Of a stretch of DNA of 64,000 nucleotides, positions 11,001-44,187 are shown in pieces. The DNA lies in NCBI GenBank assembly GCA_028865345.1, contig JAGWKL010000004.1:8457-72456 (forward strand), written 5' to 3'. The notes beneath the pieces are model-generated. The model was not told the DNA's origin. It did no database searches and saw only the letters and a list, made by a program, of their open reading frames with translations. Origin of the DNA: Candidatus Omnitrophota bacterium (lineage in GTDB: Bacteria; Omnitrophota; Gorgyraeia; Zapsychrales; Fredricksoniimonadaceae). The translations under genes were made by a program, and so were the position numbers. Position 1 is the first letter of the stretch; the number at the start of each line of letters is the position of its first letter.

Positions 11001-11105
11001 AGGATGCCTGGATCGCGCGCCTCTGTTGAATGTGCATAATTAAGTCAACTAATGACTTAGTTTAGCGTGAAACTTTATTTTGTCAAGAAAAAAACAACAG
11101 GGGGT

Positions 11106-11486
11106 TTACAAGCGGGCGAGCCACAATAAAATAATAGGGATGGCTGTTCCTAAAACCAAACAAACCCAGACGACCCAGGGCTTGGTGTACTTAAAAGCCA
11201 TCATGATGCCAAGCACAGTGGTCGTCAATAATCCTACAACCATCAAAAGGACCAAGTACCGGAAAGGGACTGAAGATTTCGGAACCTTTCGGCTGTCAAC
11301 CCACCGCTGATTCTTGTGGACCTGCGAAAGGGATTTAATGATCGCCGGCGGCTTATAGGTACCGTCGCGGCTTGGCACATGCAAACCGAAGGTCTGCCAG
11401 GCCCCGCTGATAAGGTAAAAGACGAGCAAGGGGGCAAAAAAAACACCAAGGTACAAATGGATATTGCGCATTTGCTTGATGTTCAT
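11106..11486 (-). CDS. Small membrane protein (PepSY-associated-TM-like, 3 TM helices)
   Basis: MRNIHLYLGVFFAPLLVFYLISGAW followed by two further hydrophobic helices. Its start overlaps the stop of the upstream dehydrogenase by 4 nt. Confidence 0.4.
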   Translation of the reverse strand: MNIKQMRNIHLYLGVFFAPLLVFYLISGAWQTFGLHVPSRDGTYKPPAIIKSLSQVHKNQRWVDSRKVPKSSVPFRYLVLLMVVGLLTTTVLGIMMAFKYTKPWVVWVCLVLGTAIPIILLWLARL

Positions 11487-12772
11487 AACCTGACCACCTT
11501 TTTATCTTTCTTGCCCTTATAGATATTGCGCGTGTCAAAAATCAACCGCGCATTTTTGTAAATGAAGGCATAGTCCAACGCAGAATGGTCCACGGCCACC
11601 ACAACCACGTCATAACTTTTCAATTTCGCCGCCGTCAGGTCAATGGCTTTAAGGTCCAGCCCGTCCAGCTTCAAGAACGGGATCAGCGGATCGTAATAAT
11701 CCACCCTGGTTTGCTTTCTTAACAACTCAATGAGGCTTATGGCCGGCGATTTTCTTAAGTCTTTGACATCTTTCTTATACGTCACCCCCAAAACCAGGAC
11801 CCTGGCGGTTTTAAAGGGCTTATGCAGCAGTTTCTTCAACCGGTTGACGGCGAAAGCCGGCATGTCATGGTTGGTGTCCGCGGCGAGCTTGATGAATTTG
11901 CAACTGAAATTATAATGCTTGGCTTTCCAATATAAATACAGCGGGTCCTCGGGAATGCAGTGCCCCCCCACGCCCAAACCCGGATAAAACGGCATAAAGC
12001 CGAAGGGCTTGGTCTTGGCGGCATCGATGACCTCCCAAACATCAATGCCCGAGGCATGGCACATCTGAGCTATTTCATTGATCCACCCGATATTGACAAT
12101 ACGGAAAGAGTTTTCCAGCAATTTGGTCATTTCCGCGGCCTTGGGGCTTGACACCTGGTGCACATTCTTGATGATCTGCCGATAAAGCAGCCCGGAGAGT
12201 TCCGTGCAGGTTTCGGTCAAGCCCCCCACAACCTTGGGGATCCGCGTGACATCGAAACTCCTGTTGCCGGGGTCGATGCGTTCGGGGGAAAAAGCGACAT
12301 AAAAATCCCTGCCCGCCCTCAAACCGCTGTTTTCCAGCTGAGGCTTGATAAGCTCCTCCGTCGTCCCCGGATAGGTGGTGCTTTCCAGAACAATAAGCAT
12401 GTCCTTATGCAAATGCCGGGCTACGCTCTTGACCGCGCTGACTATATAGGAAATGTCCGGCGTGTATTTGCGTTTAAGGGGCGTGGGCACACAAATGATG
12501 ACGACATCGGCCTGGGACAACAAATCAAAATCCGTGGACACATCAAAAACTTTCTTGGCCGACATACGGGCGATCAACCGGCTTGGCACGTCGGTAATAT
12601 AGCTTTCCCCTCTTTTGATACGTTCCACCCTCTGTTTGTCCGTATCGATGCCGGAGGTTTTATAACCTTTTTGCGCAAAAGCCAGCGCCAGCGGCAGGCC
12701 GACATACCCCATACCAATGACCGCCACGTGGGCCTTTTTAGCGACGATCTTATTTTTGAGCTTTTTCGACAT
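11483..12772 (-). CDS. Nucleotide-sugar dehydrogenase (UDP-N-acetyl-D-glucosamine / mannosamine 6-dehydrogenase, WbpA/WecC-like)
   Basis: N-terminal Rossmann motif VAVIGMGYVGLPLA. Catalytic region GFMPFYPGLGVGGHCIPEDP. About 429 aa, the typical UDP-glucose / ManNAc dehydrogenase family size. Confidence 0.85.
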   Translation of the reverse strand: MSKKLKNKIVAKKAHVAVIGMGYVGLPLALAFAQKGYKTSGIDTDKQRVERIKRGESYITDVPSRLIARMSAKKVFDVSTDFDLLSQADVVIICVPTPLKRKYTPDISYIVSAVKSVARHLHKDMLIVLESTTYPGTTEELIKPQLENSGLRAGRDFYVAFSPERIDPGNRSFDVTRIPKVVGGLTETCTELSGLLYRQIIKNVHQVSSPKAAEMTKLLENSFRIVNIGWINEIAQMCHASGIDVWEVIDAAKTKPFGFMPFYPGLGVGGHCIPEDPLYLYWKAKHYNFSCKFIKLAADTNHDMPAFAVNRLKKLLHKPFKTARVLVLGVTYKKDVKDLRKSPAISLIELLRKQTRVDYYDPLIPFLKLDGLDLKAIDLTAAKLKSYDVVVVAVDHSALDYAFIYKNARLIFDTRNIYKGKKDKKVVRL

Positions 12773-13103
12773 ATCCCAGGTTCTGTCCCTTCTTCTTGTA
12801 TTCCAAAACCGTCATTTTCTTGATCCACTCGACTTGACTGCTTTGGGGATAGTAGTAAGCGCGGATGTAATCTCCCTGGTGAAACCCTTCACCCTGTGAA
12901 AAATCAACGAGCCTGACCCGCCTGTTTCGATATTGATCATAGACCGTGGTGGTATTGCGCCCCACGGCCTGGACGGTGCCGGTGACCACGGCAAGGCCGT
13001 TGAGATAATAACCGTAATGACGGCCCGCAAAAACGCTCGCCTGCGCCTGTCCCATATAAATAAGAAAACCCAGGACCGTCAGCAAACCTATTTTCTTTCT
13101 CAT
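12750..13103 (-). CDS. Small secreted protein of unknown function
   Basis: Signal peptide MRKKIGLLTVLGFLIYMGQAQA. Tyr-rich, 117 aa. Its end overlaps the dehydrogenase start. Confidence 0.4.
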   Translation of the reverse strand: MRKKIGLLTVLGFLIYMGQAQASVFAGRHYGYYLNGLAVVTGTVQAVGRNTTTVYDQYRNRRVRLVDFSQGEGFHQGDYIRAYYYPQSSQVEWIKKMTVLEYKKKGQNLGYVEKAQK

Positions 13104-13213
13104 CTTCTATCTCTTGAAGAGATAAAATACCGCGAATTAAGGGCCTTGTCAACGTAAATGCCCAAGACATTTGTACGTCGTGTCGTTTGTTTTAGTAACG
13201 ATCATTTAATCTT

Positions 13214-13636
13214 TCATTGATGAGCGGCCCGAATCATCAAGATGGGGATATTGGTACGATGTCTTAATTCATCGGCAACACTGCCCAAGATCCAATCTTT
13301 CAGGGGGCCATGCCCGTGAGTGCTCATCGCCACCAGGTCACAGCCTTTCTCTTTGATCCACTTCATGATTTCATTCGACGGTTCGCCATAAGCCAGCTGG
13401 GCCTCGGCCGGGATTCCGGCGGACTGAAACTCCAACCGGACCCGGTTCAAATACGCGGTATCTTCGGTTATTTCGGGACCGACGGCATCCCGGCCAAAAG
13501 TCCGCGCGGCCCAACCATCGGCCACGTGCAGCAATATCACTTTGGATTGCATAAGCTTGGCAAGCTGTTTGATGTGTTCGATAATGGCGCGGTCACACGG
13601 CGTGCTATCCAACGTCACGAGAATGGTCTTATACAT
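13214..13636 (-). CDS. Universal stress protein (UspA family)
   Basis: Has the UspA fold motifs ILLHVAD...AMSTHGHGPLKDWILGSVADELRHRTNIPILMI (ATP-binding G-x2-G-x9-G-S/T). Confidence 0.8.
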   Translation of the reverse strand: MYKTILVTLDSTPCDRAIIEHIKQLAKLMQSKVILLHVADGWAARTFGRDAVGPEITEDTAYLNRVRLEFQSAGIPAEAQLAYGEPSNEIMKWIKEKGCDLVAMSTHGHGPLKDWILGSVADELRHRTNIPILMIRAAHQ

Positions 13637-13657
13637 GTGTCATCTTTCCTTTCCGGT

Positions 13658-15082
13658 TTATCCGCCGGTGATGACTTGCCAGGCCTGTTTTAACGCATCA
13701 GGCAAGCCGTAGAAGTCAAAGGCCGTTATAAGCAGCGCCGAAGCCCACCCGGCGATGAGCAAAAACCAACCGGGCCGCCATTGCCCCATCCGCTTGCGGG
13801 AACCGGCAAGGTGCAGCAGAGGAAACATGGCAAACGGAAGCTGCAGGGCCAGCACCACCTGGCTTAAGACTATAAGGTCGTTGACGTTATTAGCCCCACG
13901 CACACCAACAAAGATAGCCGTAGGGATAATGGCCAGGGAACGGGTGATGAGCCGCCGCAGCCATGGGGCAATCTTCCAGCGCATGAAGCCCTCCATCACC
14001 ACCTGTCCTGCCATTGTACCAACAATGGTAGCACTTTGTCCGCTGGCCAGCAATGCAATGGCAAAAAACATGCTTGCAGCAGCGGTTCCCATCAGCGGCG
14101 CCAACGTCAGGTTGGCCGCCTGTATCCAATCTGTCGAATCATTAAACGCCACCACCCCTCCGCCCGGAACCGTGACACTGGTCTTACCGTAAAAAACAAT
14201 CGCGGCCAGCACCAAAATGGCGGCGTTGATCAGGAAGGCAACCGACAAATTGACACCGGTATCGATGGTGTTAAACCGGATTGCTCTTTTGATGGATTCA
14301 TCGTCTCTCTGGAATTTGCGGCTCTGGACCAAGGCAGGATGCAGATACAGCACATGCGGCATGACCGTTGCTCCGATGATGCCGATGGCCACATAAACCA
14401 TGCCGGGGGAACTCAACTTAAGACTGATCATGCCCCGGCCCATTTCCAGGAAGCTCGGCTGTGTCTGCGGCAGGACGAAAATCTCAATGAAGTAACAAAC
14501 GCCGATAGTTGCGACCAGCAACAGGACGATGGCTTCAATGGCCCGCATCCCAAACCGTTGCAATGCCAATAAAAGCAGGACGTCAGCGCCGGTGATGATG
14601 ACCCCCCAGAAAATGGGAATGTGGAACAACATGTTCAGCGCCACCGCACCACCCAGCACTTCAGCCAAATCGCAAGCTATAATGGCAATTTCCGCCATGA
14701 GCCAGTTTGGCACCCGTGTCCACTTGGGGTACCATTCATATAAGCATTGGGCCAAGTCGCGCCCGGTCGCGATCCCGAGCCGTGTGGCAATGACTTGGAG
14801 GAAAATGGCCATGATACTGGCCAAGGCCACCACCCACAAGAGCCCATATTTGAATTGTGCCCCGCCCTGCAGATCGGTGCCCCAATTGCCAGGGTCCATG
14901 TAGGCCACACTGACCAAAACTCCAGGGCCGAAATAGGCGAGCATTTGCTTCCAAAAACCGACATGCGACAATGGCACATTCACGCTACTGTGCATTCCTT
15001 CCAGAGACACGGCGCCAGGAGGCGGATTCGAAACGGAAGCTCCAAGAGGGTTCTTTGTTGATTGAGGATTTCCCATTGCCAC
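13658..15082 (-). CDS. mntH: NRAMP-family Mn2+/Fe2+ transporter
   Basis: Canonical motifs AYMDPGNWGTDLQGGAQFKYGLLW (TM1) and GATVMPHVLYLH (TM6). The ORF-track start is GTG. The first ATG is at 15074-15076. Confidence 0.9.
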   Translation of the reverse strand: MAMGNPQSTKNPLGASVSNPPPGAVSLEGMHSSVNVPLSHVGFWKQMLAYFGPGVLVSVAYMDPGNWGTDLQGGAQFKYGLLWVVALASIMAIFLQVIATRLGIATGRDLAQCLYEWYPKWTRVPNWLMAEIAIIACDLAEVLGGAVALNMLFHIPIFWGVIITGADVLLLLALQRFGMRAIEAIVLLLVATIGVCYFIEIFVLPQTQPSFLEMGRGMISLKLSSPGMVYVAIGIIGATVMPHVLYLHPALVQSRKFQRDDESIKRAIRFNTIDTGVNLSVAFLINAAILVLAAIVFYGKTSVTVPGGGVVAFNDSTDWIQAANLTLAPLMGTAAASMFFAIALLASGQSATIVGTMAGQVVMEGFMRWKIAPWLRRLITRSLAIIPTAIFVGVRGANNVNDLIVLSQVVLALQLPFAMFPLLHLAGSRKRMGQWRPGWFLLIAGWASALLITAFDFYGLPDALKQAWQVITGG

Positions 15083-15112
15083 AGCCCTTCTGTTTCTATG
15101 TTTAAGTAAGAT

Positions 15113-15127
15113 TGATATACTGTCTCA
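15113..15127. promoter_or_regulatory. Fur/Mur-box-like operator upstream of mntH
   Basis: TGATATACTGTCTCA, 30-45 nt upstream of the mntH start. It is nearly identical to the box upstream of fur (TGATATAGTGTATCA). Confidence 0.4.
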
Positions 15128-15145
15128 CTAATACTCTAAAAAAAT

Positions 15146-15607
15146 TTATTTCTGGCTTGACTGACAGTCTTTACATATGCCATAAAAATGCATTTCATGG
15201 CCCAAGATCTTGAATCCCTGCCTCTCTAAATAAGGGTGGTAAACATCTTCCTCTTCCTTGTCTGGGAATTCGATGAACCGATGGCAGCGCACGCATTGGG
15301 CATGGTGGTGCGGTTTTTCATCATAGACATGTTCAAAATGCCGGTGCTTATCCCCAAAGGCGGTTTCACGGATGATGCCGGCTTCCAATAGATCATGCAG
15401 CACACGGAAAACGGTCGGCCGGGAGACTTTCAACCTTTTGTGCAGGCACTCCTTCGCCAGTTCTTCAGCCGTAAAATGGCCGTGGGAGCGCATGACCTCG
15501 TTAAAAATGATTTCCCGGCCCTGACTGGTCCTGCGCCCCGACTTGGACAAATGGCGCAGGAATTTCAGGCGCTCATCCGTGACCGTTTTGGAGTCAGCCT
15601 TGCTCAT
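15146..15607 (-). CDS. fur: Fur-family metalloregulator (Fur/Mur)
   Basis: DNA-binding helix SRPTVFRVLHDLLEAGII. Metal-site motifs HFEHVYDEKPHHHAQCVRCHRFIEF...CKDC. Confidence 0.8.
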   Translation of the reverse strand: MSKADSKTVTDERLKFLRHLSKSGRRTSQGREIIFNEVMRSHGHFTAEELAKECLHKRLKVSRPTVFRVLHDLLEAGIIRETAFGDKHRHFEHVYDEKPHHHAQCVRCHRFIEFPDKEEEDVYHPYLERQGFKILGHEMHFYGICKDCQSSQK

Positions 15608-15608
15608 A

Positions 15609-15623
15609 TGATATAGTGTATCA
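15609..15623. promoter_or_regulatory. Fur-box-like inverted repeat (7-1-7) abutting the fur start codon
   Basis: TGATATA-G-TGTATCA. The arms are TGATATA and TGATACA, matching 6 of 7 as reverse complements, in the same layout as the TGATAAT-N-ATTATCA Fur box. It lies immediately 5' of the fur ATG (15605-15607). Confidence 0.45.
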
Positions 15624-15671
15624 TTTAATGGCGGGAAGTCAAACTTTTGTAACTCTTTGTCACAAAAGGCC

Positions 15672-16448
15672 CTATTGCTTCGACTTCGTAAGGATTGTTA
15701 AGGATTTTTGTTTATAAAATTTTGTCACATCAAAAGCGGATACGTATTTAATGTGCGGCGCCCAGCGCATGGGAAACGCCAGATGGGTTTTCTTGAAACT
15801 GGCGGCATAAATGGGGTGTTGGGCATCCGTTTGGGACGCTTTGACGGTAAACCAAGCGTGGTCCAGCGATGTGGACTCGTCGGCGCCTACGTAACGCCAG
15901 CGACCATCCCAGATTTCCACCCACGTATGGTTACCGCTGCCATCCGGCCACATGGCAATCCCCGCGATCCTTGCGGGTATGCCTACGGAACGTAAAGCAT
16001 CGACCAGCAATATCGAAAGCCCCGTACATGAGGCCCAATGAGCCCGGATGGATTCATAGGGACTTTGATCGGGCTTGGGGCGTTTGGTGGCGCTATAGGC
16101 CACATGCAGGCTTTTAAAAACATATTTATTCAAGGCTAAGACCGCCCGGTCGATGGTCCTGCTCTTGACGGCTATTTTGATAAAACGCCGGTGAAAATCC
16201 CCCCGCCAGTCGTCCCGGCGTTCATTGAGGGAAGCATAAGGAAGGACGTCGTTGAGAAAAACAGCCCACGGGACTTCCCTGCCCCACGGAACTTCCTTCA
16301 TCGTTTGCAATGCCAGGCGGGTATTCTCGGCGAGAAAACTATTCTTTAAGGATTTTGAATCCTTAGGCGGCATGTTGGCCTTCAAGAACGCTACGGCCCG
16401 GCGCTCTTGGGAGCTCGTTTTTTCAGCCCATGCCCCGCAAACCAACAT
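15672..16448 (-). CDS. Transglutaminase-like cysteine peptidase superfamily protein
   Basis: A Cys-His-Asp triad context is present: WASCTGLSILLVDALRSVGIPARI ... GNHTWVEIWDGRWRYVGADE. The start is uncertain because the ORF-track start is TTG. Confidence 0.65.
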   Translation of the reverse strand: MLVCGAWAEKTSSQERRAVAFLKANMPPKDSKSLKNSFLAENTRLALQTMKEVPWGREVPWAVFLNDVLPYASLNERRDDWRGDFHRRFIKIAVKSRTIDRAVLALNKYVFKSLHVAYSATKRPKPDQSPYESIRAHWASCTGLSILLVDALRSVGIPARIAGIAMWPDGSGNHTWVEIWDGRWRYVGADESTSLDHAWFTVKASQTDAQHPIYAASFKKTHLAFPMRWAPHIKYVSAFDVTKFYKQKSLTILTKSKQ

Positions 16449-16500
16449 GGAACAAACGGTCAAGAGTATAAAGGACTGTAAAAGAAGTCTTTGAATGCTC

Positions 16501-17460
16501 TTATTTCAACCTTTCTGTCAATTGATACAGCAATCCATTGGCTATTTCCAGGCGGGGCAGCAGGAATTCCCTGGCCTTGATCCTGACGCTGGATTTTCCC
16601 CATCCCTTGTCCTGGATAGTGAAAACGACATCGCAGTTATAGACCTTGGCCCAAATATGATTGCGGTCCTTTTTTTTCACTCTTCCGTCGAGATCATGGA
16701 CCAGCTTTAAACTTTCCCCGTAGACCCTCTGAAATCCATCGTGCAGATCGGCGTGTGCAGAGTCCTGGGCCACGGCAATACCGAGGGCAAGGGCAGGCAG
16801 GAAGGTCGCCCCCAACACGGTCGTTGCCGCGTAAAGCCCGGCACTGCGCAGGGCCGTGGGCTTTAGGGCCTCCAAGAGGACGATCGTGACCAGTTTGGGA
16901 AGGCCGTTGATATTGCGGATCTTCAAATTTTTGACGCCGACATCATAGGCCGACACCCGTACCGGGGGCGCATGAGTATAATCCTCAACAATGACCTTCC
17001 CCAAATTAAGGTCGAGGGTGTCTATCTTAAAAACAGGCAGTTTCAGCGGCTTGCCCTTGCCCGCGGCCTGCTGTTCTTCGACGATCTTCAATGAATCCAC
17101 ATTCAGCTTGCCTTCTTTGTTCTTGATGATGATCACCTTGGCCATGTTAAAAATGACCCAGGGAAAATGCATTTTGCCTTTGAGCAGCGCCGGGATATCG
17201 GCATCCACCATCACTTCGGGCATGACCAAAAAGACCTGGTCAGGAAAACCCGGCGGGTTATAAAGCCGGAAATCCTTAATGATAATTTTATGGGTCAGCA
17301 GCCCTAAGGAAAAAGAACCCATTTCCACCTTGGCACCGATGATCTTGGGGGAAGCTATTTCAATGGCGGATTTGATGAGGACATCTTTGAGTTGGGACAA
17401 AATGAACACTGCGACTGCGAGGGCGAGAAACCAGCGTATGAAAAGCGGCCATGTTTTCAT
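16501..17460 (-). CDS. Membrane-anchored protein of unknown function (AsmA/DUF748-like architecture)
   Basis: An N-terminal transmembrane helix (LFIRWFLALAVAVFILS) is followed by a beta-rich periplasmic region. No catalytic motif was recognised. Confidence 0.35.
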   Translation of the reverse strand: MKTWPLFIRWFLALAVAVFILSQLKDVLIKSAIEIASPKIIGAKVEMGSFSLGLLTHKIIIKDFRLYNPPGFPDQVFLVMPEVMVDADIPALLKGKMHFPWVIFNMAKVIIIKNKEGKLNVDSLKIVEEQQAAGKGKPLKLPVFKIDTLDLNLGKVIVEDYTHAPPVRVSAYDVGVKNLKIRNINGLPKLVTIVLLEALKPTALRSAGLYAATTVLGATFLPALALGIAVAQDSAHADLHDGFQRVYGESLKLVHDLDGRVKKKDRNHIWAKVYNCDVVFTIQDKGWGKSSVRIKAREFLLPRLEIANGLLYQLTERLK

Positions 17461-17465
17461 GTTCT

Positions 17466-17512
17466 TTTAAAAATCACGGGCGTCTCCCATGAATCAAACG
17501 GGAGACGCCCGT
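17466..17512 (-). terminator. Strong rho-independent terminator
   Basis: Perfect 13-bp GC-rich stem ACGGGCGTCTCCC / GGGAGACGCCCGT with an 11-nt loop. On the minus strand it is followed by GATTTTTAAAAG, directly downstream of the lipoprotein gene. Confidence 0.7.
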
Positions 17513-17518
17513 AATTTC

Positions 17519-21178: not shown

Positions 21179-22348
21179 TTATATTTTACCAAGTCTTTTC
21201 ATGATACAGGCAACTGCCTCTTGAAAAACAGCCGGCTCAGGCAAAAGGCTTAAAACGATAAAAGCTTCGCCGGTAAAATCAAAGAAATATCCCGGGTGGA
21301 CCAACACATGGTCTTCTTTCAGGAATTCCAGCACCCACTCCTCTTCTGATTTCACCGCGGGAATGCGCAAGGTGGCATACCATCCGCCCTGCAAGGAAAG
21401 CAACTGCGTATTTTTATTTAAATGGGCCGACAGCCACTTGTGGTTTTCCCTGACCCTGGCCATGATCTGTCCCTGGATGGCGGAAGCCTGGGCCAGCCAG
21501 GGGCTTAAGGCATTCTGCACCGGCGTATTGACGGATAAATACGTGTCCGCGATGATCTCAAGGCGCGCAAAGGCTTCCAGCAAGGCGGCTTCGGGGCCTG
21601 AGCCCAAGATCCAGGAACATTTCATCTGCGGCAGCCCCAGGGTCTTTGACAGCCCCCCCAGCACAAAGGTCAAAACAGGCTGGTTGCCGATACAACTGAC
21701 CGCACCCGCCGGCTGCAAGGCATATTCGAAGAAAACTTCGTCGGAAATAATGCTCAATTGGTGTGTGCGGCAAATATCATTTAAGGCGTTTAATTCATCG
21801 TGGTTGATATAGGATCCCGTGGGATTGTTGGGATTGACTAAAACGACGGCGCGGGTTCGGTCATCGATCAGACGCTTCAGGCCCTGCATATCCACGTGCC
21901 ATTGCCCGTCGTAATTAAGGGGGTAATAATCAAAATGGATGTCATTAAGCTCCAGCAAAAATTGGAACAACGGATAACTGGGCTGAGGAATGAGGATTTT
22001 CTCAGCCGGATCGGCCAACAACCTCATTAAGAACGAGTAGGCCTCGGAGGTGCCGGCGGTCAAAATGATATGGTCGACGGATACGGGCAGATTCTGGCGG
22101 GCATAATACGCGGCCAGGGCCTGGCGGGCCTCCGCCATGCCGCAGGCATCAGGCCGGTATCGGAGATTTTCCGGCGAGTTTAAGGCCGTCAGAAGCCCTT
22201 CAGGGTAAACGAAGCCGCAGCCCGTCGGATTGGAAGCCGTGAGGTCCAGCACACGGGCTTCACGGGCTCTAAGCTGATCCAGGATCCTGTCCAGGGCGTT
22301 GGTTTCCCGCGGCCAAGCGGTCCGGCGGGAAAATTTATATTTGTCCAT
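21179..22348 (-). CDS. PLP-dependent aminotransferase, class I/II
   Basis: Fold-type I layout with a Lys-containing segment SKTLGLPQMKCSW. About 389 aa. Confidence 0.7.
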   Translation of the reverse strand: MDKYKFSRRTAWPRETNALDRILDQLRAREARVLDLTASNPTGCGFVYPEGLLTALNSPENLRYRPDACGMAEARQALAAYYARQNLPVSVDHIILTAGTSEAYSFLMRLLADPAEKILIPQPSYPLFQFLLELNDIHFDYYPLNYDGQWHVDMQGLKRLIDDRTRAVVLVNPNNPTGSYINHDELNALNDICRTHQLSIISDEVFFEYALQPAGAVSCIGNQPVLTFVLGGLSKTLGLPQMKCSWILGSGPEAALLEAFARLEIIADTYLSVNTPVQNALSPWLAQASAIQGQIMARVRENHKWLSAHLNKNTQLLSLQGGWYATLRIPAVKSEEEWVLEFLKEDHVLVHPGYFFDFTGEAFIVLSLLPEPAVFQEAVACIMKRLGKI

Positions 22349-23033
22349 GGGCCTGTTTAAGACGGGTCAATTCCTGCTCTTTGGCGGCAAAAGCCTTCTT
22401 TAATTCATCGAATTCGCTTTTGGCCACCCACTGAATGTCTTCGCGCTTTTCTTTCAGTTGGACGCATTGGGCCTTTAAGGTGCGGATTTCCCCGGCGTTG
22501 GCTTGAAGGGTGGTCTGTTGGCTGGTGACCTTGACGGATAACTGGCGCTTTTCTTCGATGATCTGCTCGTGTTTGATCTTAATCTCCTGCAATTCACGCT
22601 CCAGGCGAAGGCGATGGGAATGTTCTTTTTCCAGATCGCCCTCCGTGCGGAAAATCTGGTCTTTTAAATCTTTTTCATGCCGCTTGGATTTCTCCAGGGT
22701 GTCCTGCTCCTTTTCACGCCAGCTTTTTTCCAGCGCCAATTTTTCGGTCAGGTCCTTGACCTGGGCCTTTTGTTCATCAACAGCCTTCTGAAAGCCGCGC
22801 TGGTCCATTTTCATCTTTTCAATTTCCCCCTGCAGGGATTGGTTATGCCGCTCCCAGCGCTCGGCAATGGATTTCCAGTCCCTGGTTTCGGTTGCGGGAC
22901 CGGGCGCCGGCACAGGCCTTCTTTCTTTTTCCTTTTTCTTCTTGGGTCTGACGGCAGGGTCCGCCGGCAACAGGTAAATGACAAGGCCCAAGACCACTAA
23001 AACCACAAAACACCAAATCATGATCCAGAACAT
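22335..23033 (-). CDS. Membrane-anchored coiled-coil protein
   Basis: N-terminal transmembrane helix MFWIMIWCFVVLVVLGLVIYLL. It is followed by a basic Pro-rich linker and about 170 aa of heptad-rich charged sequence. Confidence 0.5.
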   Translation of the reverse strand: MFWIMIWCFVVLVVLGLVIYLLPADPAVRPKKKKEKERRPVPAPGPATETRDWKSIAERWERHNQSLQGEIEKMKMDQRGFQKAVDEQKAQVKDLTEKLALEKSWREKEQDTLEKSKRHEKDLKDQIFRTEGDLEKEHSHRLRLERELQEIKIKHEQIIEEKRQLSVKVTSQQTTLQANAGEIRTLKAQCVQLKEKREDIQWVAKSEFDELKKAFAAKEQELTRLKQAHGQI

Positions 23034-23077
23034 AAGATTCCTTTGGGATAATATGATGCATCAAAATACCACAGAAC

Positions 23078-24481
23078 TCAATGAAAGGCAAAAGTGTTTG
23101 AAATAGCGCCCCGCCCCAAGACCCGTTCATTTTGGGACCAATCCGATGAAATGTGTTTAAGATAGCGCAGATAAAAATCTTTCGCCGGTTTACTTTTCGC
23201 TTTCCGGGCATACGCGCTGAAGATCGCATAGGCCCTTTTAAAATGCCCCTGTGCCAGCTGCGGCCGGCCGTCGGCATAATACGCCTTGGCCAAAAGCCAA
23301 TGCCCGCGCCCGAAATTGGGTTCAAATTGGAGCGTGCGTTCGAACAAAGCCGTTTCACTGCGCCAAAACGTATTTTGATGCCAGGTCAACAAAAGGCAGG
23401 TGATGATGACAAGGCCCGCCAACGGCCTGGCCGAAGATTTCAGAAAATGGTCGCCGGCCGCCACGGCGATGATCAAAATACCGACGATGGGCAAGTATAA
23501 GAAATGTTCGGGGGTCAATATGAACGAATACTCGTTGACCAGGGGGACGATGTTTAAGACCGGGAGTAACGCGGCCAGGAACCATCCCAATCCCAGAAAC
23601 AGCGTTCCTCTGGCCGCAGGCCAACGTTTGCAGACATAAAGAATAGCCAAGAGCGCCATGAACAAAACCGTCCAGGCTAAGCCATCGGGCTGCAGAATAT
23701 CCGTGCTGCGGTAATAATGAAGGCCGTAAGGGAAAAATATCAGCCGCACGTACATCCCTATGTCCCTTGGGATCGCGGCCAGGCGCAAACACAATTCACC
23801 GGGGGAGGCCATGATGGCGCCCAGAAGTGACGCCCCGGTCACGATACGGCGCCCGATGAGCAAGGCGCCGGCAGCCAGGGCAAAAAGGCCCCAGGCGCGA
23901 AAATCCTTCCGCCCGCGCCAGCAGTCAATGACCACGACAAGGGGCACAAACAGCAACGCCTGTTCCTTGCCCAAACATGCCGTCACAAAACATAATAAAG
24001 CGGCCGCATACCATTTGTTAAGATACGCATGGAGCGCCAATAAAACACCCATGGCCATCCAAAGATTGGAGATTCCGGAAATGCAGCTGACCGCCTCGGT
24101 CTGCACCGGATGGACCAGGAAAATACAGGCCACCACCCAAGCCGCCCCCCTCTTGAAGCCCAATTTTTCCAGAAGTCCGAAAAGCAAAAGGCCGTTGACC
24201 GTGTGCACGATCACATTCAGCAGATGAAAACCAAAAGCATGGGGGCCGAAAAGGCGGTATTCAAGGCGGTACAGGACCTCTAATAACGGGCGGTAATAGG
24301 TGTTAAGTCCGGCCGCGACCTTGGGCGCCTGAAAAGCCCCGTACCAATGCCCGAGGTCCGCGATGTGCGGGTTACGGAGGATAAAAATGACGTCGTCATG
24401 GACGAAAGGATGCCGCAGGGCGTTACAAAAGGCAAGCAATCCGAAGAAAAACAGCGACAAAAAGCAACCGGCAGTACTCAT
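23078..24481 (-). CDS. GT-C-fold glycosyltransferase-like polytopic membrane protein with C-terminal TPR region (PMT/ArnT-like)
   Basis: At least 10 transmembrane helices with conserved acidic residues in the first loop (FVHDDVIF). The C-terminus has TPR-like repeats (WLLAKAYYADGRPQLAQGHFKRAY). The start was moved to MSTAGCFL (24479-24481) to remove the overlap with the Hpt gene. Confidence 0.5.
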   Translation of the reverse strand: MSTAGCFLSLFFFGLLAFCNALRHPFVHDDVIFILRNPHIADLGHWYGAFQAPKVAAGLNTYYRPLLEVLYRLEYRLFGPHAFGFHLLNVIVHTVNGLLLFGLLEKLGFKRGAAWVVACIFLVHPVQTEAVSCISGISNLWMAMGVLLALHAYLNKWYAAALLCFVTACLGKEQALLFVPLVVVIDCWRGRKDFRAWGLFALAAGALLIGRRIVTGASLLGAIMASPGELCLRLAAIPRDIGMYVRLIFFPYGLHYYRSTDILQPDGLAWTVLFMALLAILYVCKRWPAARGTLFLGLGWFLAALLPVLNIVPLVNEYSFILTPEHFLYLPIVGILIIAVAAGDHFLKSSARPLAGLVIITCLLLTWHQNTFWRSETALFERTLQFEPNFGRGHWLLAKAYYADGRPQLAQGHFKRAYAIFSAYARKAKSKPAKDFYLRYLKHISSDWSQNERVLGRGAISNTFAFH

Positions 24482-24494
24482 GGGCCGCTTAGCC

Positions 24495-24848
24495 TCAGAC
24501 CCCCAAGTCCTTTTTAAAACGGGCGGAAAAAGATTTGATCTCTTCAAAATACCCATCGATGGATGAAGCCACCCCTTGCATGCCGTCGGTCTTATTTTCC
24601 TTGGCCAGGGTCTCCAATTGAAGGCAGGCGGCATACATGGGCTTGGCGGAAATGTTCCCGGAGGCCCCCTTCATGGAATGGGCGACCTCCTTGATCTTGG
24701 CGATATCTTGGGCAGCGATGGCTTCTCCCAGGGCTTTGCGTTTGATCACAAAATCTTCAATATAAATGTCAAGAAGTTCATTCAGCAATTCCTTGTCGTC
24801 CTGCACGCGTTCCAATACGTCCTTTAGATCAATGATCTCTTCACTCAT
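24495..24848 (-). CDS. Hpt (histidine phosphotransfer) domain protein
   Basis: Hpt signature AHSMKGASGNISA with the conserved His. 117 aa. Confidence 0.7.
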   Translation of the reverse strand: MSEEIIDLKDVLERVQDDKELLNELLDIYIEDFVIKRKALGEAIAAQDIAKIKEVAHSMKGASGNISAKPMYAACLQLETLAKENKTDGMQGVASSIDGYFEEIKSFSARFKKDLGV

Positions 24849-30979: not shown

Positions 30980-31402
30980 ATGTGGCAAAGGAGAATAAAA
31001 ATCATTTTCCTGGCCTGCGTGATCTTTGCCGCGGCCTTTGACCTCTGGCGGGCCTATGCCCAGGCTGTTTTCCAGTTCCAGGACCACGCCACCGTCCCCT
31101 TGCACAGTCTGGGATATCCATTTATGGGCCTGGAAAGTCTTTTTAAGGACGTCCCTGGGGTCGGCTATTACACCGATCAAACGATAGATTCCGGCAACCC
31201 CCTGGCCACCGCCCAATTTGAACTGGCCCAATATATGCTGGCCCCGACGGTGCTGGACTTGAACCATCCCCGATGGCGCTGGGACATCTTTGCTTGCACC
31301 AGTCCCCAGACGGCCCTGGAGGCCATCAAACGCCTGGGGCTCGTTCCTTTGAAAACGAACCACGGCATCATTTTGGCTTATAACCCTCGTGGCATCGATT
31401 GA
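30980..31402 (+). CDS. Small membrane-anchored protein of unknown function
   Basis: N-terminal transmembrane helix IKIIFLACVIFAAAF. ATGA overlap with the downstream gene. The competing minus-strand ORF 30929..31363 is Gly-rich and looks like antisense noise. Confidence 0.45.
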   Translation: MWQRRIKIIFLACVIFAAAFDLWRAYAQAVFQFQDHATVPLHSLGYPFMGLESLFKDVPGVGYYTDQTIDSGNPLATAQFELAQYMLAPTVLDLNHPRWRWDIFACTSPQTALEAIKRLGLVPLKTNHGIILAYNPRGID

Positions 31403-32718
31403 TGATTTATTTGCTTGGTCTCCTTATTAGTTTGACGGCAGGCCTTCTTTTTATCCGCGTGTTCGCATCCAAACGCCTCGAAGCTGTGCTGCATCTTCTA
31501 CTGGCCTTGAGTTTGGGCCTGGGGCTCGTGGGTACATCCGCCTTTTATGTGCATATTCTTTTAAACCAATTCAACCGCTTTATTCCCGTCGCGGTCGTCC
31601 TGTCCGGGACCCTCGTCTCATTTTTTATAAAACCTTTTTCTCTTCCGCAATTGCGGATGACCAAAGCCCATGCCTTGGGCCTGTTGGTCTTGGGTCTCAT
31701 CGCTGTTCCTCTGGCTGTCTGCGCCCACTATTATCCCTTCGGCGGATGGGACGCGTGGTCCTGCTGGAATCTGAAAGCAAAATTCATCTTTCTGGGTCAT
31801 GAGCACTGGAAGGAAGTCCTCGCCCCCAGTTTTTGGCGCAGCAATACGCAATATCCCCTGCTTTGGCCCCTGATCAATGTATGGTTTTGGGACCTGGGGG
31901 GCAAATTCAGCCAGGCCGTACCCATGCTCAATAGTGTTGTCATCGCCCTGTTGACCGCCGGGGTATTGTTTTTCGGACTGCTGGAACTGACCGGCCGTAT
32001 GTGGCCGAACCTCCTGGCCGTTTTCATCATCATGGCCGTGCCCTTCAATATCATTTTATACGCCAGCCAATACAGCGACAGCCTGCTGGGCCTTTACCTG
32101 TTGTCCTCCTTCCTGTGCCTGCTGCTGGCGGAGAAATATAATGAAGCAAACTTCAGAATATTAAGCATGGTATTTTTGGGATTGATGAGTTTTGCCAAAG
32201 ATGAAGGCCTGGCAGCTGCTGTGATCGCGGCCTTCGTTATTTATTGGCACCTGCTGCCTAAAAAGAATGGGGTTGGGCTCAAAGCATTTTGGAAAGACAA
32301 TGGCAAGTTGATCTTCTGGTTTATCGTCGCGGCCCTGCCGACTGTTATTTTCAAACTGTTTCTTGCGCCTAAAAACGTGGCTTTTATCAACGGATTGGTG
32401 TCGGCGGATAAACCCACCGATTGGGCACGCTTGGCCGTCATTGCAGTTTATCCCTGGTTTGAGTTTATATCGGCCAAATGGGGCGGATTTTGGCTTCTGG
32501 CTGCAGGCGGCATCTTATTGGCCGGGAAAAAATTGTGGCGGACGGCCGCGGGTACAATCGGATTGACTCTGGTGTTCTATCTGGGTGTGGTTCTGGCTTA
32601 TTATGCGCTGAATACTTACTTTGAAATCGGCTGGTGGATGTCAACGACCCTTTCACGCATCCTCTTTGCTCTTTTGCCTACGGTCGTCTTATGGATAGGA
32701 TACGGCCTGGAAACTTAA
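31399..32718 (+). CDS. Polytopic membrane protein (about 12 TM), possible GT-C-type glycosyltransferase / glycan polymerase
   Basis: 439 aa with many hydrophobic helices. Located in a glycan-gene neighbourhood. No definitive motif was recognised. Confidence 0.4.
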   Translation: MMIYLLGLLISLTAGLLFIRVFASKRLEAVLHLLLALSLGLGLVGTSAFYVHILLNQFNRFIPVAVVLSGTLVSFFIKPFSLPQLRMTKAHALGLLVLGLIAVPLAVCAHYYPFGGWDAWSCWNLKAKFIFLGHEHWKEVLAPSFWRSNTQYPLLWPLINVWFWDLGGKFSQAVPMLNSVVIALLTAGVLFFGLLELTGRMWPNLLAVFIIMAVPFNIILYASQYSDSLLGLYLLSSFLCLLLAEKYNEANFRILSMVFLGLMSFAKDEGLAAAVIAAFVIYWHLLPKKNGVGLKAFWKDNGKLIFWFIVAALPTVIFKLFLAPKNVAFINGLVSADKPTDWARLAVIAVYPWFEFISAKWGGFWLLAAGGILLAGKKLWRTAAGTIGLTLVFYLGVVLAYYALNTYFEIGWWMSTTLSRILFALLPTVVLWIGYGLET

Positions 32719-40332: not shown

Positions 40333-41493
40333 TCAATGGGCCAATAAACGGCAGATCTGTCCTATAAAAATCCCCTCATAAGCGCCGAGGCTGTGCCCCA
40401 GAATGGCCAGCAAGAGCCCCACGCAGGCGAAGCCTGGTTGGTAGATTTCCGCCACCACCGGCGCGGAAACCAGTCCCGCGATATTGGACATGGACGCTGT
40501 GGCCACCAAGAATAACGGAGCCCGGATGAGCCTTGCCGTGGCGAGCAATACGGTAAAATGGACGGCTATGACCAGCACCCCGGCTACGATCAAAATACCG
40601 GCCGTGGCGGCATGGCTCAAACTGGCGCGGGCGCCGATCGAGGTCAGTACAAAATATAATATCCATTTTCCGGTTTTGTCGCTGCCGGTAGGCGCAATAC
40701 GCCTGACAGTCGTCATGGACATGACAATTGCCGTGGTGGAAACCAGGATGATGCTCCAGGCGTAAGGCGAAAGCACCGCCGGCAAATACACAGACAATGC
40801 CCGGCAGCATCTTGAAACGATCAGGGCCAATCCTATCATTAACACCGCCTTGGGCCAATGCACGGGCTGTTTATCGGTTTTGGAAAAACCCCTGGTACGT
40901 TGGGCCAGATCATCCAGGATCCGGCGGTCGGCACGGTTGAAATCATCGAATTTCTTTTGCTGCGATGCCAGGGCGACCAAAATCCCCATCCACGTATAAG
41001 GCACAATGGTGTCCACAATGACCATCGGCAGGAAAACGGAGTCCGGCGCGTTCAACGCTTCCTTGACCGCGATCATATTGGCGCTGCCCCCGGTCCAGGA
41101 AGCGGACAAGGCGCCGAACCCCGACCAGAATTGCGCCCCTACCAGGGGCTTGAACACAACGAAGCTTATGACCATGCCAAGCCAGATGCCGATTGACCCG
41201 GCAAAAAACATCACCAGTGACTTGGGGCCAAGACGCCAGACAGACTTGATGTCCAGGTTGAGCAGCAGCAGAAACAGCGCCGGAGGCAGGAGATATTCGG
41301 TGATCCGGGCGTATAACGGGCTTTTGGGGTCGATGAGGCCGCAGGTGGACAGGACCATGGGCAGAAAATAGATCCAGAACATCGACGGGAGAAACTTGAA
41401 CAGGAATTTCGTGCGCTCATGCCCGGCCAAATACAGAACGCCCGCCTCAACGGACAACAAAATAAGAATAAGAAAGAAATAATTATGGATCAT
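40333..41493 (-). CDS. Polytopic membrane protein (DUF819-like)
   Basis: About 386 aa with 10-12 transmembrane helices. The start was set at ATG 41491-41493. The ORF-track start at 41562 is GTG. Confidence 0.4.
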   Translation of the reverse strand: MIHNYFFLILILLSVEAGVLYLAGHERTKFLFKFLPSMFWIYFLPMVLSTCGLIDPKSPLYARITEYLLPPALFLLLLNLDIKSVWRLGPKSLVMFFAGSIGIWLGMVISFVVFKPLVGAQFWSGFGALSASWTGGSANMIAVKEALNAPDSVFLPMVIVDTIVPYTWMGILVALASQQKKFDDFNRADRRILDDLAQRTRGFSKTDKQPVHWPKAVLMIGLALIVSRCCRALSVYLPAVLSPYAWSIILVSTTAIVMSMTTVRRIAPTGSDKTGKWILYFVLTSIGARASLSHAATAGILIVAGVLVIAVHFTVLLATARLIRAPLFLVATASMSNIAGLVSAPVVAEIYQPGFACVGLLLAILGHSLGAYEGIFIGQICRLLAH

Positions 41494-41650
41494 AAATGAA
41501 GGGAATAAATTTGATTTTTTCTGTCCCCTGGTATTCGGCCATAGTATTTCCCTCGCAGGCACGCTTTGCCCGCGTCCAGCGACGCGGCAACGCTCGTGCC
41601 CGGGAAGATTTGCCGCGGCCGAATACGCAATATTACAAAAATAAATCCGT

Positions 41651-41789
41651 ACGTTATAAGGGATAAGTTTGTTCTTTTGGCAACAGTAAATTTTTTAGCC
41701 AAAGCATGAGACCTTTGGCGGCCCCGCCATAGGCGGGGCAAAAAACGAGCGAAGCCTGTTGCCAAAAAACAAACTTATCCCTTATATGT
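41651..41789. mobile_element. MITE-like element / long inverted-repeat hairpin (about 139 bp)
   Basis: Left arm 41651-41686 ACGTTATAAGGGATAAGTTTGTTCTTTTGGCAACAG and right arm 41756-41789 CTGTTGCCAAAAAACAAACTTATCCCTTATATGT are reverse complements of each other, matching about 31 of 34 with one indel. They flank a 69-bp core that itself contains a perfect 8-bp hairpin (GCCCCGCC ATA GGCGGGGC). The element has no coding capacity. The right arm supplies the last 5 codons and the stop of the epimerase gene. Confidence 0.5.
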
Positions 41790-42854
41790 AATACCGATAC
41801 CGGCTTTGACCCTGCTTAAATCGTAAACCCCGTCGTGGGAAAGATACGGATTGCGGGCGGTTTCGCCTTTGATGAAAAACGGCGTGTCCAGGTCGATGAA
41901 ATCAAAATAACCCAGACCCGCCGCCAGGTGCGCCGAGGCCGTCATGGCGAGATTCGATTCCATCATCCCGCCGATCATGAGCTTAATGCCTGCGGCATGG
42001 GCTATGCGGCTGATTGCCAGCGCATGCACCAGCCCGCTCTTCATCAATTTAATATTAACGGCGCCTGCCGCTTTTTCCTTGATGATGCTAAGCACATCAG
42101 CCACCGATGAGCATGATTCATCCGCACAGACACACACCCTGGATTCGCGCGTGACTTTCTTTAAACCCTCCCAATCGGCCTTGGGCACGGGTTGTTCGAT
42201 CAAATCCGGTACGATGCCGATCTTGCTTAAACTCTTTAAAAACTGCAAGGTCTGACGGGCAGAATATCCTTGATTAGCATCCAGGATGATCTTAGAACGG
42301 GCGGTGATGCGGCAGACAGCTTCCACGCGCTTGAAATCCAGGTCCATATCACGCCCGATCTTGATTTTAAAGGCCCGAAAACCTTTTTTGTAAAAAGCCT
42401 CGGCCTTATCTTCGGTTTCTTCAAGATCAGCGATCACAATAGTGATGTCGGTGCGCAAAGTTTTAGGCCTGCTCGCCCATAGGCGCCATAAAGGCAGGCG
42501 CAAATGTCGGCTCAGCGCATCGAAGGCGGCCATCTCGACGGCGGCCACGGCACTTTTATTATCCGGCAGCCGTTCGTGCAGCCGGGCCGAAAGGTTTAAA
42601 TAATCATTGATGGACTTGGCCGTAAGCCAGGCCCCGGCCTGTTTTAAATTCTTGAAGGTCTGTTCAATGGTTTCGCCCGTGATATGCGTCGCCACGGCAG
42701 CTTCGCCGAAGCCTCTGGCGCCGCCGGCCGTCTGGAGCATGAACAGGACATTATCCAGGCTCTCGTGTTGGCCGCCGGCTACGCGGAAAGGTTGATGCAA
42801 AGGCGCTTGCAGGGGTTTCAGGGAAGTTTTAACGACGAGCAATGGGTCATTCAA
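41775..42854 (-). CDS. Enolase-superfamily dipeptide epimerase (L-Ala-D/L-Glu epimerase-like)
   Basis: KIKIGRD (Lys general base and metal-binding region). DANQGYS. IEQPV and VCADES. About 359 aa. Apparent TTG start at 42852-42854. Confidence 0.75.
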   Translation of the reverse strand: MNDPLLVVKTSLKPLQAPLHQPFRVAGGQHESLDNVLFMLQTAGGARGFGEAAVATHITGETIEQTFKNLKQAGAWLTAKSINDYLNLSARLHERLPDNKSAVAAVEMAAFDALSRHLRLPLWRLWASRPKTLRTDITIVIADLEETEDKAEAFYKKGFRAFKIKIGRDMDLDFKRVEAVCRITARSKIILDANQGYSARQTLQFLKSLSKIGIVPDLIEQPVPKADWEGLKKVTRESRVCVCADESCSSVADVLSIIKEKAAGAVNIKLMKSGLVHALAISRIAHAAGIKLMIGGMMESNLAMTASAHLAAGLGYFDFIDLDTPFFIKGETARNPYLSHDGVYDLSRVKAGIGITYKG

Positions 42855-44187
42855 TGGTCACAAGCCTCGTGAGCCGTTGTAATAAAGAACCCTCCGGGCT
42901 GTCCTGCCCCAAAGATAAATCCGAAACGATCACCCGGTCAATGGCGTATTTGACCCGATGTCCGTCCACATTCTTTTTGTACCCGGTCGTATCGTGAATG
43001 ACATAGGGCTTACCATCGACCATGCCCAAATAGAGCATGATATGCCCTTTCATGGCCAATAGGGTGTTGGCCGCGGGCACCGCGGCCAGGGCCTCAATTT
43101 TGGCATCATCGCTTTTGTCATCAAGATCGACGATGGAGCTTCCAACCTGCATCTGGTCCTTGGAATCGCGCGGCAACATGATCCCGACGGTGGCAAAAAC
43201 CATCTGTAAAAACCTGGAACAGTCCTGCTCGCCGTACATGTCTCCCCAGCCGTAAGGCTGGCCCAGCATCATCAGGGCCTGTTTGTAAATATTGCGGGCG
43301 GTGAAAGGCAAAAATCCGGGACTGACGTCTTCCGCGTTCATATACGCCTGTTTGATGACCAAAGCCCCGTCGGCACCAGCGACCGGCACATTGACCGTCA
43401 CGCGTCCGGCGTCGATGCCGGACAAGGGCAGCCGCGCGCCCATGCGCACGTAATCATAAAAATCGGTCATGGAGCTGTTGAGAAAAATATCGGCCTTAGG
43501 CCTGATCACCACCGCAAAGTCTCCGTCCCTGGCAAACTCCCGGACCTGATTGGTGTCTCCCAATGCGATGTCGGCGGCCTCAACCCACCCGTCGCTGATG
43601 TCCGTCAATACATAATACCAAAGCCCGTCGGCGGACGTATGGACCACGGCCACGGGCGTCCCCACATCCAAAGCGCTGTTTTGCAGCTGGTCAAAATCAT
43701 AGTCCCCTTTTTGGGCGTACAGCCCTTCCTTGGTCGGCAAAAAACGCTGGGAGGCGAAATGCACCACCAGGCCGTAACGGGGCGCCTGCCCCATGACCAC
43801 GCCGCTTAAATTCATGTTGCGGCGGGCCATGTCCATGAAACCCCGGTCGTTCCTGATGCCTTCGGCGGTGTAGTAGCCTTTGGAGGTGATCTCGGCCAGG
43901 GTCTTTTGAAGTTCAGCCAGCAGCGACTCGGTCTTGGAATCATCGACAAGGGCAAAAATGTCCTTGGTAAGCTTTTTGTCGTTGCTTATCCTCTCATTGA
44001 ATTGGTCAATTTGATCAGGGCTCATGATCACGGCATCCGGGGAAGGATGGCGGCTGATCCAGAAACCGGGGGCTTTCATGAGCCGGGTGGTGTGGCCTAT
44101 CAACGAAGGCGCTTCATAATTCAGCCGCTGTTGGGCGGATACAGGAAGGGCCAGAAGCAATAAAGCAAGGGTAAGAAGAAATTTCAT
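42847..44187 (-). CDS. NlpC/P60 (C40) cell-wall peptidase with N-terminal SH3-like domains (YkfC-like gamma-D-Glu-diamino-acid endopeptidase)
   Basis: Signal peptide. C-terminal GQPYGWGDMYGEQDCSRFLQMVF carries the catalytic Cys, with downstream His. It pairs with the adjacent epimerase. Confidence 0.75.
   Translation of the reverse strand: MKFLLTLALLLLALPVSAQQRLNYEAPSLIGHTTRLMKAPGFWISRHPSPDAVIMSPDQIDQFNERISNDKKLTKDIFALVDDSKTESLLAELQKTLAEITSKGYYTAEGIRNDRGFMDMARRNMNLSGVVMGQAPRYGLVVHFASQRFLPTKEGLYAQKGDYDFDQLQNSALDVGTPVAVVHTSADGLWYYVLTDISDGWVEAADIALGDTNQVREFARDGDFAVVIRPKADIFLNSSMTDFYDYVRMGARLPLSGIDAGRVTVNVPVAGADGALVIKQAYMNAEDVSPGFLPFTARNIYKQALMMLGQPYGWGDMYGEQDCSRFLQMVFATVGIMLPRDSKDQMQVGSSIVDLDDKSDDAKIEALAAVPAANTLLAMKGHIMLYLGMVDGKPYVIHDTTGYKKNVDGHRVKYAIDRVIVSDLSLGQDSPEGSLLQRLTRLVTIE

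Follow-up and report, generated by a model that had tools for sequence, protein, structure and literature searches.

A small foldback element at the epimerase–DUF819 operon junction of some Omnitrophota

What kind of DNA is a 132-nt palindrome that lies between two genes of an operon and has become part of one of them? The question is raised by a 64,000-nt stretch of a Candidatus Omnitrophota genome (NCBI GenBank assembly GCA_028865345.1, contig JAGWKL010000004.1, positions 8,457 to 72,456; this whole stretch is referred to as the window). Here a non-coding sequence with long terminal inverted repeats, named element A, is found at the 3′ end of a gene for an L-Ala-D/L-Glu (dipeptide) epimerase, upstream of a gene for a DUF819 membrane protein. 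An initial annotation, made from the letters of the window alone, had likened it to a miniature inverted-repeat transposable element (MITE) or a large structured extragenic palindrome. We consider it an even call that element A is a MITE-like foldback insertion, resident at one junction, which acts as a hairpin at the RNA level and rarely flips through its arms. Its family would be small, previously undescribed and bound to the epimerase/DUF819 junction in some Omnitrophota.

Structure and limits of element A

Element A is bounded by terminal inverted repeats of 31 and 32 nt and spans 132 nt of the window (41655–41686 to 41756–41786). Its DUF819-proximal arm (TATAAGGGATAAGTTTGTTCTTTTGGCAACAG, 41655–41686, 32 nt) and its epimerase-proximal arm (CTGTTGCCAAAAAACAAACTTATCCCTTATA on the + strand, 41756–41786, 31 nt; arm consensus TRTAAGGGMTAARTTTRTTYTTT) pair in exact blocks of 19 and 12 nt, split by an extra C at 41674. 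The inverted repeat reported in the initial annotation is real, while the length of 139 bp given there shrinks to 132 nt, with 41651–41654 and 41787–41789 falling outside the conserved repeat. The 69-nt core (41687–41755) had been measured correctly, and it is much shorter than the cores of homologous elements in two related loci, L065 and L067. It contains the perfect 8-bp GC hairpin described earlier (GCCCCGCC-ATA-GGCGGGGC, 41721–41739), which is homologous to a hairpin in the spacer of a further locus, L007, and a second hairpin with a 7-bp stem (GCCAAAG-CATGAGAC-CTTTGGC, 41698–41719). The L065 element contains the 19-mer AAGCATGAGACCTTTGGCG of this second hairpin too, with its strand reversed with respect to the genes.

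Inspection of all six frames gave no meaningful open reading frame (ORF) in element A, in agreement with the earlier description, and a 91-aa ORF with a TTG start that crosses the spacer has no Pfam match. Database matches of the latter arise only by chance, to a genuine but unrelated LDAADGVIDGKYYGRP-repeat protein. The 19-mer of the arm occurs twice in the window, against 0.02 expected occurrences, and the 64 kb contain no further inverted repeat that exceeds 20 nt and reaches 90% complementarity. Its predicted folding reaches about −73 kcal/mol on both strands (z = −9.3 and −11.1 against dinucleotide shuffles), and the two strands fold equally well.

A second genome of the same species (L018; NCBI GCA_028866185.1, contig JAGWIR010000002.1) is 99.88% identical to the window over 30333–51494 (21 kb) and has element A at the same place and in the same orientation. 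Its arms are perfect (31/31) and the C of 41674 is missing, so this C is a strain-specific 1-nt insertion in the window; one further difference within the element is an A/G at 41690. A Logan contig from an independent sample (L006, SRR32006849), with an epimerase 99% identical, carries the same insertion. This contig terminates exactly 30 nt into the arm and only one arm is visible. We rejected the break as a sign of multiple copies, since a perfect 31-nt inverted repeat, as in L018, predicts a break in a k = 31 graph and makes it uninformative on copy number.

Insertion at an ancestral stop-start overlap

In relatives from four lineages (L008, L019–L025, L026/L027 and L070), the epimerase and DUF819 genes are joined without a spacer through a 4-nt overlap (ATGA or GTGA). 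Among them, L070 has the gene order of the window and, at 79% nucleotide identity in DUF819, stands nearest to it. The overlap leaves a signature at the C-terminus of the epimerase, GIGIxP, and as most of the 120 orthologue clusters end in this way, the 4-nt overlap is ancestral and the spacer derived. The element is present in the window, L006, L018, L065/L066 and L067, and absent from the overlapping loci listed above. The arms show no similarity to the empty-site junction beyond that of shuffled controls, so the inserted DNA did not come from local duplication, and an origin of the arms by local inverted duplication was ruled out on these grounds. Aligned junctions thus show element A to be an insertion relative to related Omnitrophota, as had been claimed, and indicate that the extra DNA is of non-local origin.

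In place of the ancestral overlap, the window has a 281-nt spacer (41494–41774, − strand). On the − strand the order is element A, a 28-nt linker (41627–41654), a second foldback unit (unit B) and a 37-nt A/U-rich leader (41494–41530). The first 12 nt of element A on this strand fall inside the epimerase ORF: the right arm supplies its end, TAT AAG GGA TAA, that is, Tyr-Lys-Gly and a stop codon (TAA, 41775–41777, − strand) located 9–11 nt into the arm. The site at the 3′ end of the epimerase gene had been recognized in the initial annotation; in fact, element A now provides the last three codons of this gene together with its stop codon.

Homologous elements and their inversion

Larger elements occur at the same junction in L065 (ENA ERZ27248448) and L067 (ERZ27245399), which are about 225 nt and about 280 nt long, respectively. 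The arms of both read TTGTAAGGG(A/C)TAAATTTGTTCTTT..., and the epimerase stop lies in the arm in the same frame, giving protein tails of ..CKG* as compared with ..YKG* in the window. The arms are much better conserved than the surrounding DNA. Between the window and L065/L067, 22 of 24 arm positions agree, against 70–73% nucleotide identity in the flanking genes; between L065 and L067, the arms agree at 24/24 and 28/30 positions, against 78–79%. Overall, arms are 92–100% conserved and flanking genes 70–80%, and the arms also stand far above the core, which varies from 69 to about 230 nt in length and is highly variable in content. The bodies of the L065 and L067 elements are long near-palindromic rods.

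Over four sequences, 98.9% of cells in the outer 22 stem pairs are paired. Two pairs of this outer stem have undergone compensatory change, one from A-U to G-C and one from G-C to A-U, and two are wobble pairs. This is suggestive, over only three independent lineages, of arms that are kept complementary by compensatory changes. A further Logan contig (L066, SRR6962291) ends at position 2023 inside an arm, 30 nt past the G of TTG|TAAGGG, and its arms are imperfect; this end could stem from a population G/A polymorphism or from a second copy in the sample.

Over 143 nt, the body aligns between L065 and L067 only as the reverse complement (score 101, versus 61 in forward orientation), and arm-specific features switch sides between the two. 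Outside the arms, the 18-nt stretch from the distal arm to the DUF819 ATG is of equal length and orientation in both, with 13 of 18 positions identical. The alignments thus show the arm-bounded body to be inverted between L065 and L067, with the 18-nt outside flank unflipped. This flank is missing from the empty-site lineages, and a shared non-ancestral flank next to a flipped body implies that the L065 and L067 copies represent a single insertion that later flipped in situ. The polarity in the window is that of L067 and opposite to that of L065.

Inversion between long, conserved arms is also what a programmed inverton would produce, in which the arms serve as recombination sites of a recombinase-driven switch and DUF819 expression is phase-variable. 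The conservation of the arms well above flanking coding DNA, with compensatory changes, is in line with this, as are the inversion of the whole arm-bounded segment without its flank, the opposite polarities of the window and L065, the perfect pairing of 31-nt arms in the sister strain L018 and the small size, since most known invertons are shorter than 300 bp (PMC11602134). Inverted repeats enclose the segment, and both orientations of it occur, in this case between lineages only; the window and L018 share one orientation and L006 shows a single arm. Other hallmarks of invertons were not found. Scans for consensus promoters and terminators in the window, L065 and L067 elements gave chance-level matches only, with no promoter- or terminator-like asymmetry beyond chance in the core of any copy, and the near-palindromic bodies of L065 and L067 would be little altered by flipping. 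No site-specific recombinase or invertase gene was found among the window ORFs of at least 150 aa or in the gene tables of the related loci. Core length and content also vary, and a core of 69 nt is very short for the synapsis of two sites. We regard a programmed switch as quite improbable.

By nucleotide identity, the window groups with L070. L007, L008, L019, L026 and L068 form a star-like group that also includes L065 and L067. The element family thus occurs in two clades in which other members keep the intact overlap. Transfer of the spacer between lineages by recombination was considered and rejected, because adjacent coding DNA is no more similar among element carriers.

A mosaic spacer and other palindromes at the junction

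Part of the core in the window is related to a different repeat family, S. The segment GGCTTCGCTCGT (41745–41756, − strand), together with the GC hairpin, forms an S-family-like part that matches positions 4196–4250 of the L007 spacer in the same gene orientation, and no A-type arms are present in the L007 spacer. As read from these alignments, the window copy is shown to be a short chimera in which A-family arms enclose S-family sequence that has partly replaced the core. Unit B (41531–41626), the other foldback of the window spacer, is closed by the 10-nt inverted repeat GTATTCGGCC/GGCCGAATAC, has a predicted folding energy of −51.7 kcal/mol and is a further, inverted piece of family S: it matches L007 4145–4228 at 77% identity but faces the other way with respect to the flanking genes. 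A compensatory change is seen in its inner hairpin (CGCGTC/GACGCG in the window, CGCATC/GATGCG in L007). No one rearrangement was found that links the window and L007 spacers, and the occurrence of the 12-nt segment GGCTTCGCTNGT twice in the window makes two separate S-family pieces more likely than a single rearrangement.

Further palindromes are found at the same junction in other loci. L068 (2664–2726) and L069 (1426–1488) have an unrelated, near-perfect 25–29-nt palindrome composed of AAAATAGGGGACAGCGCCCTATTTT, a 5-nt loop and the complement. A dispersed short repeat, GTCATTGCGAGC...GCGAAGCAATC(TC), is present at several loci of related genomes (L068 2733–2760; L026 20855–20878 and 11682–11705; L065 ~8548–8596; L072 ~504–552), and one of its copies adjoins the L068 junction palindrome. 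All five spacer types seen at the epimerase/DUF819 junction fold into closed hairpins, and the junction is, by these comparisons, a hot spot for small palindromic insertions.

The hairpins common to all five spacer types are also what one would expect of a non-mobile structured RNA or palindrome that evolved locally, with the spacer arising by inverted duplication or template switching and being kept as a regulatory hairpin. The restriction of element A to a single locus in all data fits such an origin, as does the weak continuation of complementarity into the flanks in L067 (48 nt at 79%). The arms themselves argue otherwise, being unlike the empty-site junctions beyond shuffled controls and occurring in two clades whose nearest relatives keep the intact 4-nt overlap, and no Rfam family is matched. 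We give a purely local origin little credence.

About one-third of the 120 epimerase orthologue clusters (P0001–P0120) have non-canonical C-terminal tails in place of GIGIxP. These tails suggest that the stop-start overlap with DUF819 has been broken many times independently. Two of them, in P0041 (ARHSEAKPKNL) and P0044 (SLQGARRRSNLLS), look like read-through of the GTCATTGCGAGC...GCGAAGCAATC(TC) repeat, and one copy of this repeat appears inside the DUF819 gene of L026/L027. Two candidates for the nearest empty-site allele were set aside: P0138, a protein at least 90% identical to that of L065, has the tail GIGIIPGK and is followed by a 133-nt spacer, and at the P0055 locus synteny is lost. 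P0134 and P0137 are likewise related to L065 at a level of at least 90%.

Search for further copies

The initial annotation had called for a count of copies in the genome and for a search for target-site duplications. The searched portion of the source genome is the 64-kb window, and that of related Omnitrophota amounts to 221 kb. No second copy of element A was found in the window, and no second locus was detected in the 221 kb with nhmmer --max or a degenerate arm pattern. The exact 19-mer of the arm gave five single chance matches in 185,579 species-representative genomes, nine in JGI metagenome contigs, and likewise only chance matches in IMG/VR viral contigs, scans that would miss diverged arms. 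BLAST of plasmids and phages with the element returned no match. No protein in a collection of 15 billion reads through the element in its 48-aa frame, and the genome and JGI metagenome scans revealed no long-range pair of the 19-mer, as a partner insertion sequence would have. No transposase, integrase, invertase or other recombinase is encoded by the window ORFs of at least 150 aa, and the gene table of L018 lists none either.

No direct repeat flanks the window, L065 or L067 copy. The termini of the window copy, TA...TA, have the appearance of a TA duplication, but L065 and L067 carry TG...CA at the same position, so the TA pair is the outermost pair of the inverted repeat. We also considered a TA target duplication with a restored stop codon, in which excision of TAAGGG...CCCTTA and one TA would give ACA TAA, a near-orthologous stop; the TG...CA of L065 and L067 argue against this as well.

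Element A therefore resembles a MITE in being small and non-coding, in having long terminal inverted repeats and in its presence/absence polymorphism at orthologous sites, and departs from one in having no target-site duplication; no dispersal was seen in the window, the 221 kb or the collections scanned. The original MITE assignment is partly supported. That assignment had also held that an element unique in the genome and present in all relatives would more likely be a conserved RNA structure. What we find lies in between: L065 and L067 have orthologously placed homologues and most relatives have none, a pattern that points to a locus-bound element rather than a demonstrated active repeat family.

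An active, multicopy MITE that is mobilised in trans by a transposase encoded elsewhere would have to combine these features with a strong preference for its target, as it is found at the same junction in three lineages. Its size, long terminal inverted repeats, lack of an ORF and insertion relative to relatives are all as expected, and so are the conservation of the arms far above the core, as in MITE families, and the patchy distribution among lineages. The core holds sequence of another local repeat family, and nesting of this kind is typical of MITEs (PMC10969869). Dispersal is seen for other small repeats of related genomes. The source genome was searched over 64 kb, and a MITE may be represented by a single copy per genome (PMC10969869). 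These arguments have to be set against the single locus in the window and the 221 kb, the isolated chance matches of the exact 19-mer in genomes, JGI metagenomes and IMG/VR with none in plasmids or phages, the lack of any read-through protein, the missing target-site duplication and the lack of a transposase among the window ORFs. Moreover, the non-ancestral flank shared by L065 and L067 outside the arms implies one insertion followed by inversion. An active MITE is the foremost of the alternatives, and in our judgement a doubtful one.

We prefer the view that element A is a MITE-like resident of one junction. One or two arrivals, through transposition or an insertion event of that kind, would account for its presence, with a mobility that can no longer be demonstrated. 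Occasional flips of the body would come about when the long arms recombine or allow template switching, a behaviour described for Correia elements.

Several points weigh against this view. A single locus is known, so mobility is read from the insertion state only; the three copies have no target-site duplication in common, and a partner transposase was not found. For carriers to be scattered as they are among relatives with an intact overlap, the element would have to have entered this junction twice or to have been lost precisely on several occasions, and the epimerase tree, being star-like, cannot choose between the two. Furthermore, the same strand of the element folds better in L065 and L067 whatever the orientation of the genes (L065: −115.7 kcal/mol in sense and −101.8 in antisense; L067: −106.8 and −126.1), a difference made by few substitutions. 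Such strand-fixed folding fits a function in the mRNA sense only if the inversion is recent, and it may be a sign of a recent flip only.

Arm conservation, compensatory changes, the flip, the patchy distribution and the strand-fixed folding would be explained jointly if the arms were functional sites of a conserved locus-specific device. This could be either a recombinase-driven switch, flipping a structured segment between two formerly coupled genes, or a mobile element with site-specific insertion into the stop-start overlap and precise excision. We consider such a device improbable.

Possible action in the transcript

Element A fits none of the known signals and structured RNAs compared with it. 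Around the GC hairpin, a T run comes before the stem when the − strand is read, and reading of the + strand gives an A run after it; the hairpin is therefore a terminator on neither strand, and no site resembling an intrinsic terminator lies in the window element. Comparison of the window with Rfam 15 gave only a match to a plant microRNA precursor (25.5 bits, against a threshold of 57), as a generic long hairpin would, and the L065 and L067 elements had no match. An integron attC site was rejected by inspection: the ends GTTATAA and TTATAAC do not fit RYYYAAC ... GTTRRRY, and the flanking genes are conserved and syntenic and are not cassettes. A retron, a HEARO/omega RNA and a group II intron were likewise dismissed, with no Rfam match and with no reverse transcriptase, TnpB or integrase nearby.

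Structure prediction suggests a role for the element as RNA. In the polycistronic transcript, element A is predicted to form a three-way junction together with a duplex of some 31 bp (about −72 kcal/mol), and the entire 281-nt spacer is predicted to form two closed hairpins (−138.8 kcal/mol, z = −10). If it is transcribed, the duplex is a plausible RNase III substrate. We hypothesize that this hairpin takes the place of direct stop-start coupling, and that it is probably both a target of RNase III and a barrier to 3′ exonucleases. Cutting or exonuclease blockage could then give the epimerase and DUF819 parts of the mRNA separate fates and uncouple the two cistrons. By folding on itself, the spacer might also absorb much of the inserted length, keeping the epimerase stop and the DUF819 start closer in space. 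From modelled folding and by analogy with known elements, a present action of element A at the RNA level appears likely.

Comparison with known elements

The closest parallels are the Correia elements of Neisseria (Correia repeat enclosed elements, CREE, or Neisseria miniature insertion sequences, NEMIS). Like element A, these are non-coding sequences of about 100–200 nt with long terminal inverted repeats (26 nt in Correia elements, 31 in element A) that sit next to or extend into gene ends inside operons. Their transcript forms a long hairpin, which RNase III cuts at the terminal repeats (PMC10969869), and their inversion in situ has also been reported (PMC10969869; PMC2649163). Correia elements are dispersed in over 100 copies and have a TA target duplication, an integration host factor (IHF) site and outward promoters; no counterpart of these was found for element A. 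The hosts belong to different phyla, and the likeness concerns features; no sequence relationship is claimed.

Enterobacterial repetitive intergenic consensus (ERIC) sequences, or intergenic repeat units (IRU), are imperfect palindromes of about 130 nt that are transcribed and intergenic, often located just past a stop codon, and thus similar to element A. They act via mRNA structure and RNase sensitivity (PMC10969869). ERIC sequences are dispersed in 30 to 700 copies, whereas element A is known at one locus. Invertons such as fimS, hin and the Bacteroides polysaccharide promoters share with the element inverted repeats of 9–30 nt around a short segment, usually of less than 300 bp, that is present in both orientations (PMC11602134). 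They carry an asymmetric signal such as a promoter and need a site-specific recombinase, the gene for which is often close by; neither was found for element A. The flip in the element A family is seen between lineages and not, as in invertons, within a population.

Repetitive extragenic palindromes (REP) and bacterial interspersed mosaic elements (BIME) occur in either orientation and in mosaic arrangements, and stabilise upstream mRNA. The window spacer is similar to these in that palindromic units occupy an operon spacer and in that it is a mosaic of two repeat families in opposite orientations. REPs, however, are 20–40 nt long, highly repeated and linked to REP-associated tyrosine transposases (RAYT), while the arms of the element are 31 nt long and pair across 69 to about 230 nt, with no dispersal seen. 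New here are homologues at an orthologous junction, an in-situ inversion and a chimeric core.

If our reading is true, this would be the first description of a family of small inverted-repeat foldback elements in the uncultivated phylum Omnitrophota. It would offer a natural example of a translationally coupled operon that tolerates an insertion, with inserted DNA that gives a new stop codon and folds back on itself. As the junction has been colonised repeatedly by different palindromic elements, comparison of lineages could show how coupling, mRNA processing and relative expression are rewired. General concepts would be unchanged, since Correia and ERIC elements already show these principles.

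Genomic context and minor observations

The operon that contains element A is read from the − strand and comprises genes for an SH3b/NlpC-P60 peptidase (42847–44187), the epimerase (41775–42854, 359 aa, enolase superfamily, MR_MLE) and the DUF819 membrane protein (40333–41493, 386 aa). The true start of DUF819 is the ATG at 41493–41491: orthologues support this position, and the resulting product is identical to a called protein of 386 aa. NlpC/P60–epimerase–DUF819 is an operon for the recycling of peptidoglycan peptides. The best protein matches are to metagenome-assembled genomes of Candidatus Omnitrophica/Omnitrophota.

In L018, the gene table has no epimerase entry at 8649–10000, where the ORF is intact and 99.9% identical to that of the window, and the exact 359-aa epimerase of the window is absent from the protein collection. 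Gene callers may mishandle an epimerase ORF that runs into a hairpin. The DUF819 and thioredoxin genes are side by side in the window and in other relatives; in L065 they are separated by a block of response-regulator and histidine-kinase genes on the opposite strand (12479–17174).

Elsewhere in the window, a cluster resembling type II secretion or type IV pilus systems (900–8322; prepilin-type protein, GspF-like protein, GspE-like ATPase and secretin) precedes two Nramp transporter genes and a gene for a Fur-family regulator (8461–15607). ORFs at 4283–6484, 22335–24634 and 31399–32718 are Pfam-negative. The sole other strong short-range hairpin in the window, at 17471–17517, has an 18-nt stem with 94% complementarity and an 11-nt loop; it lies between two − strand genes and is terminator-like.

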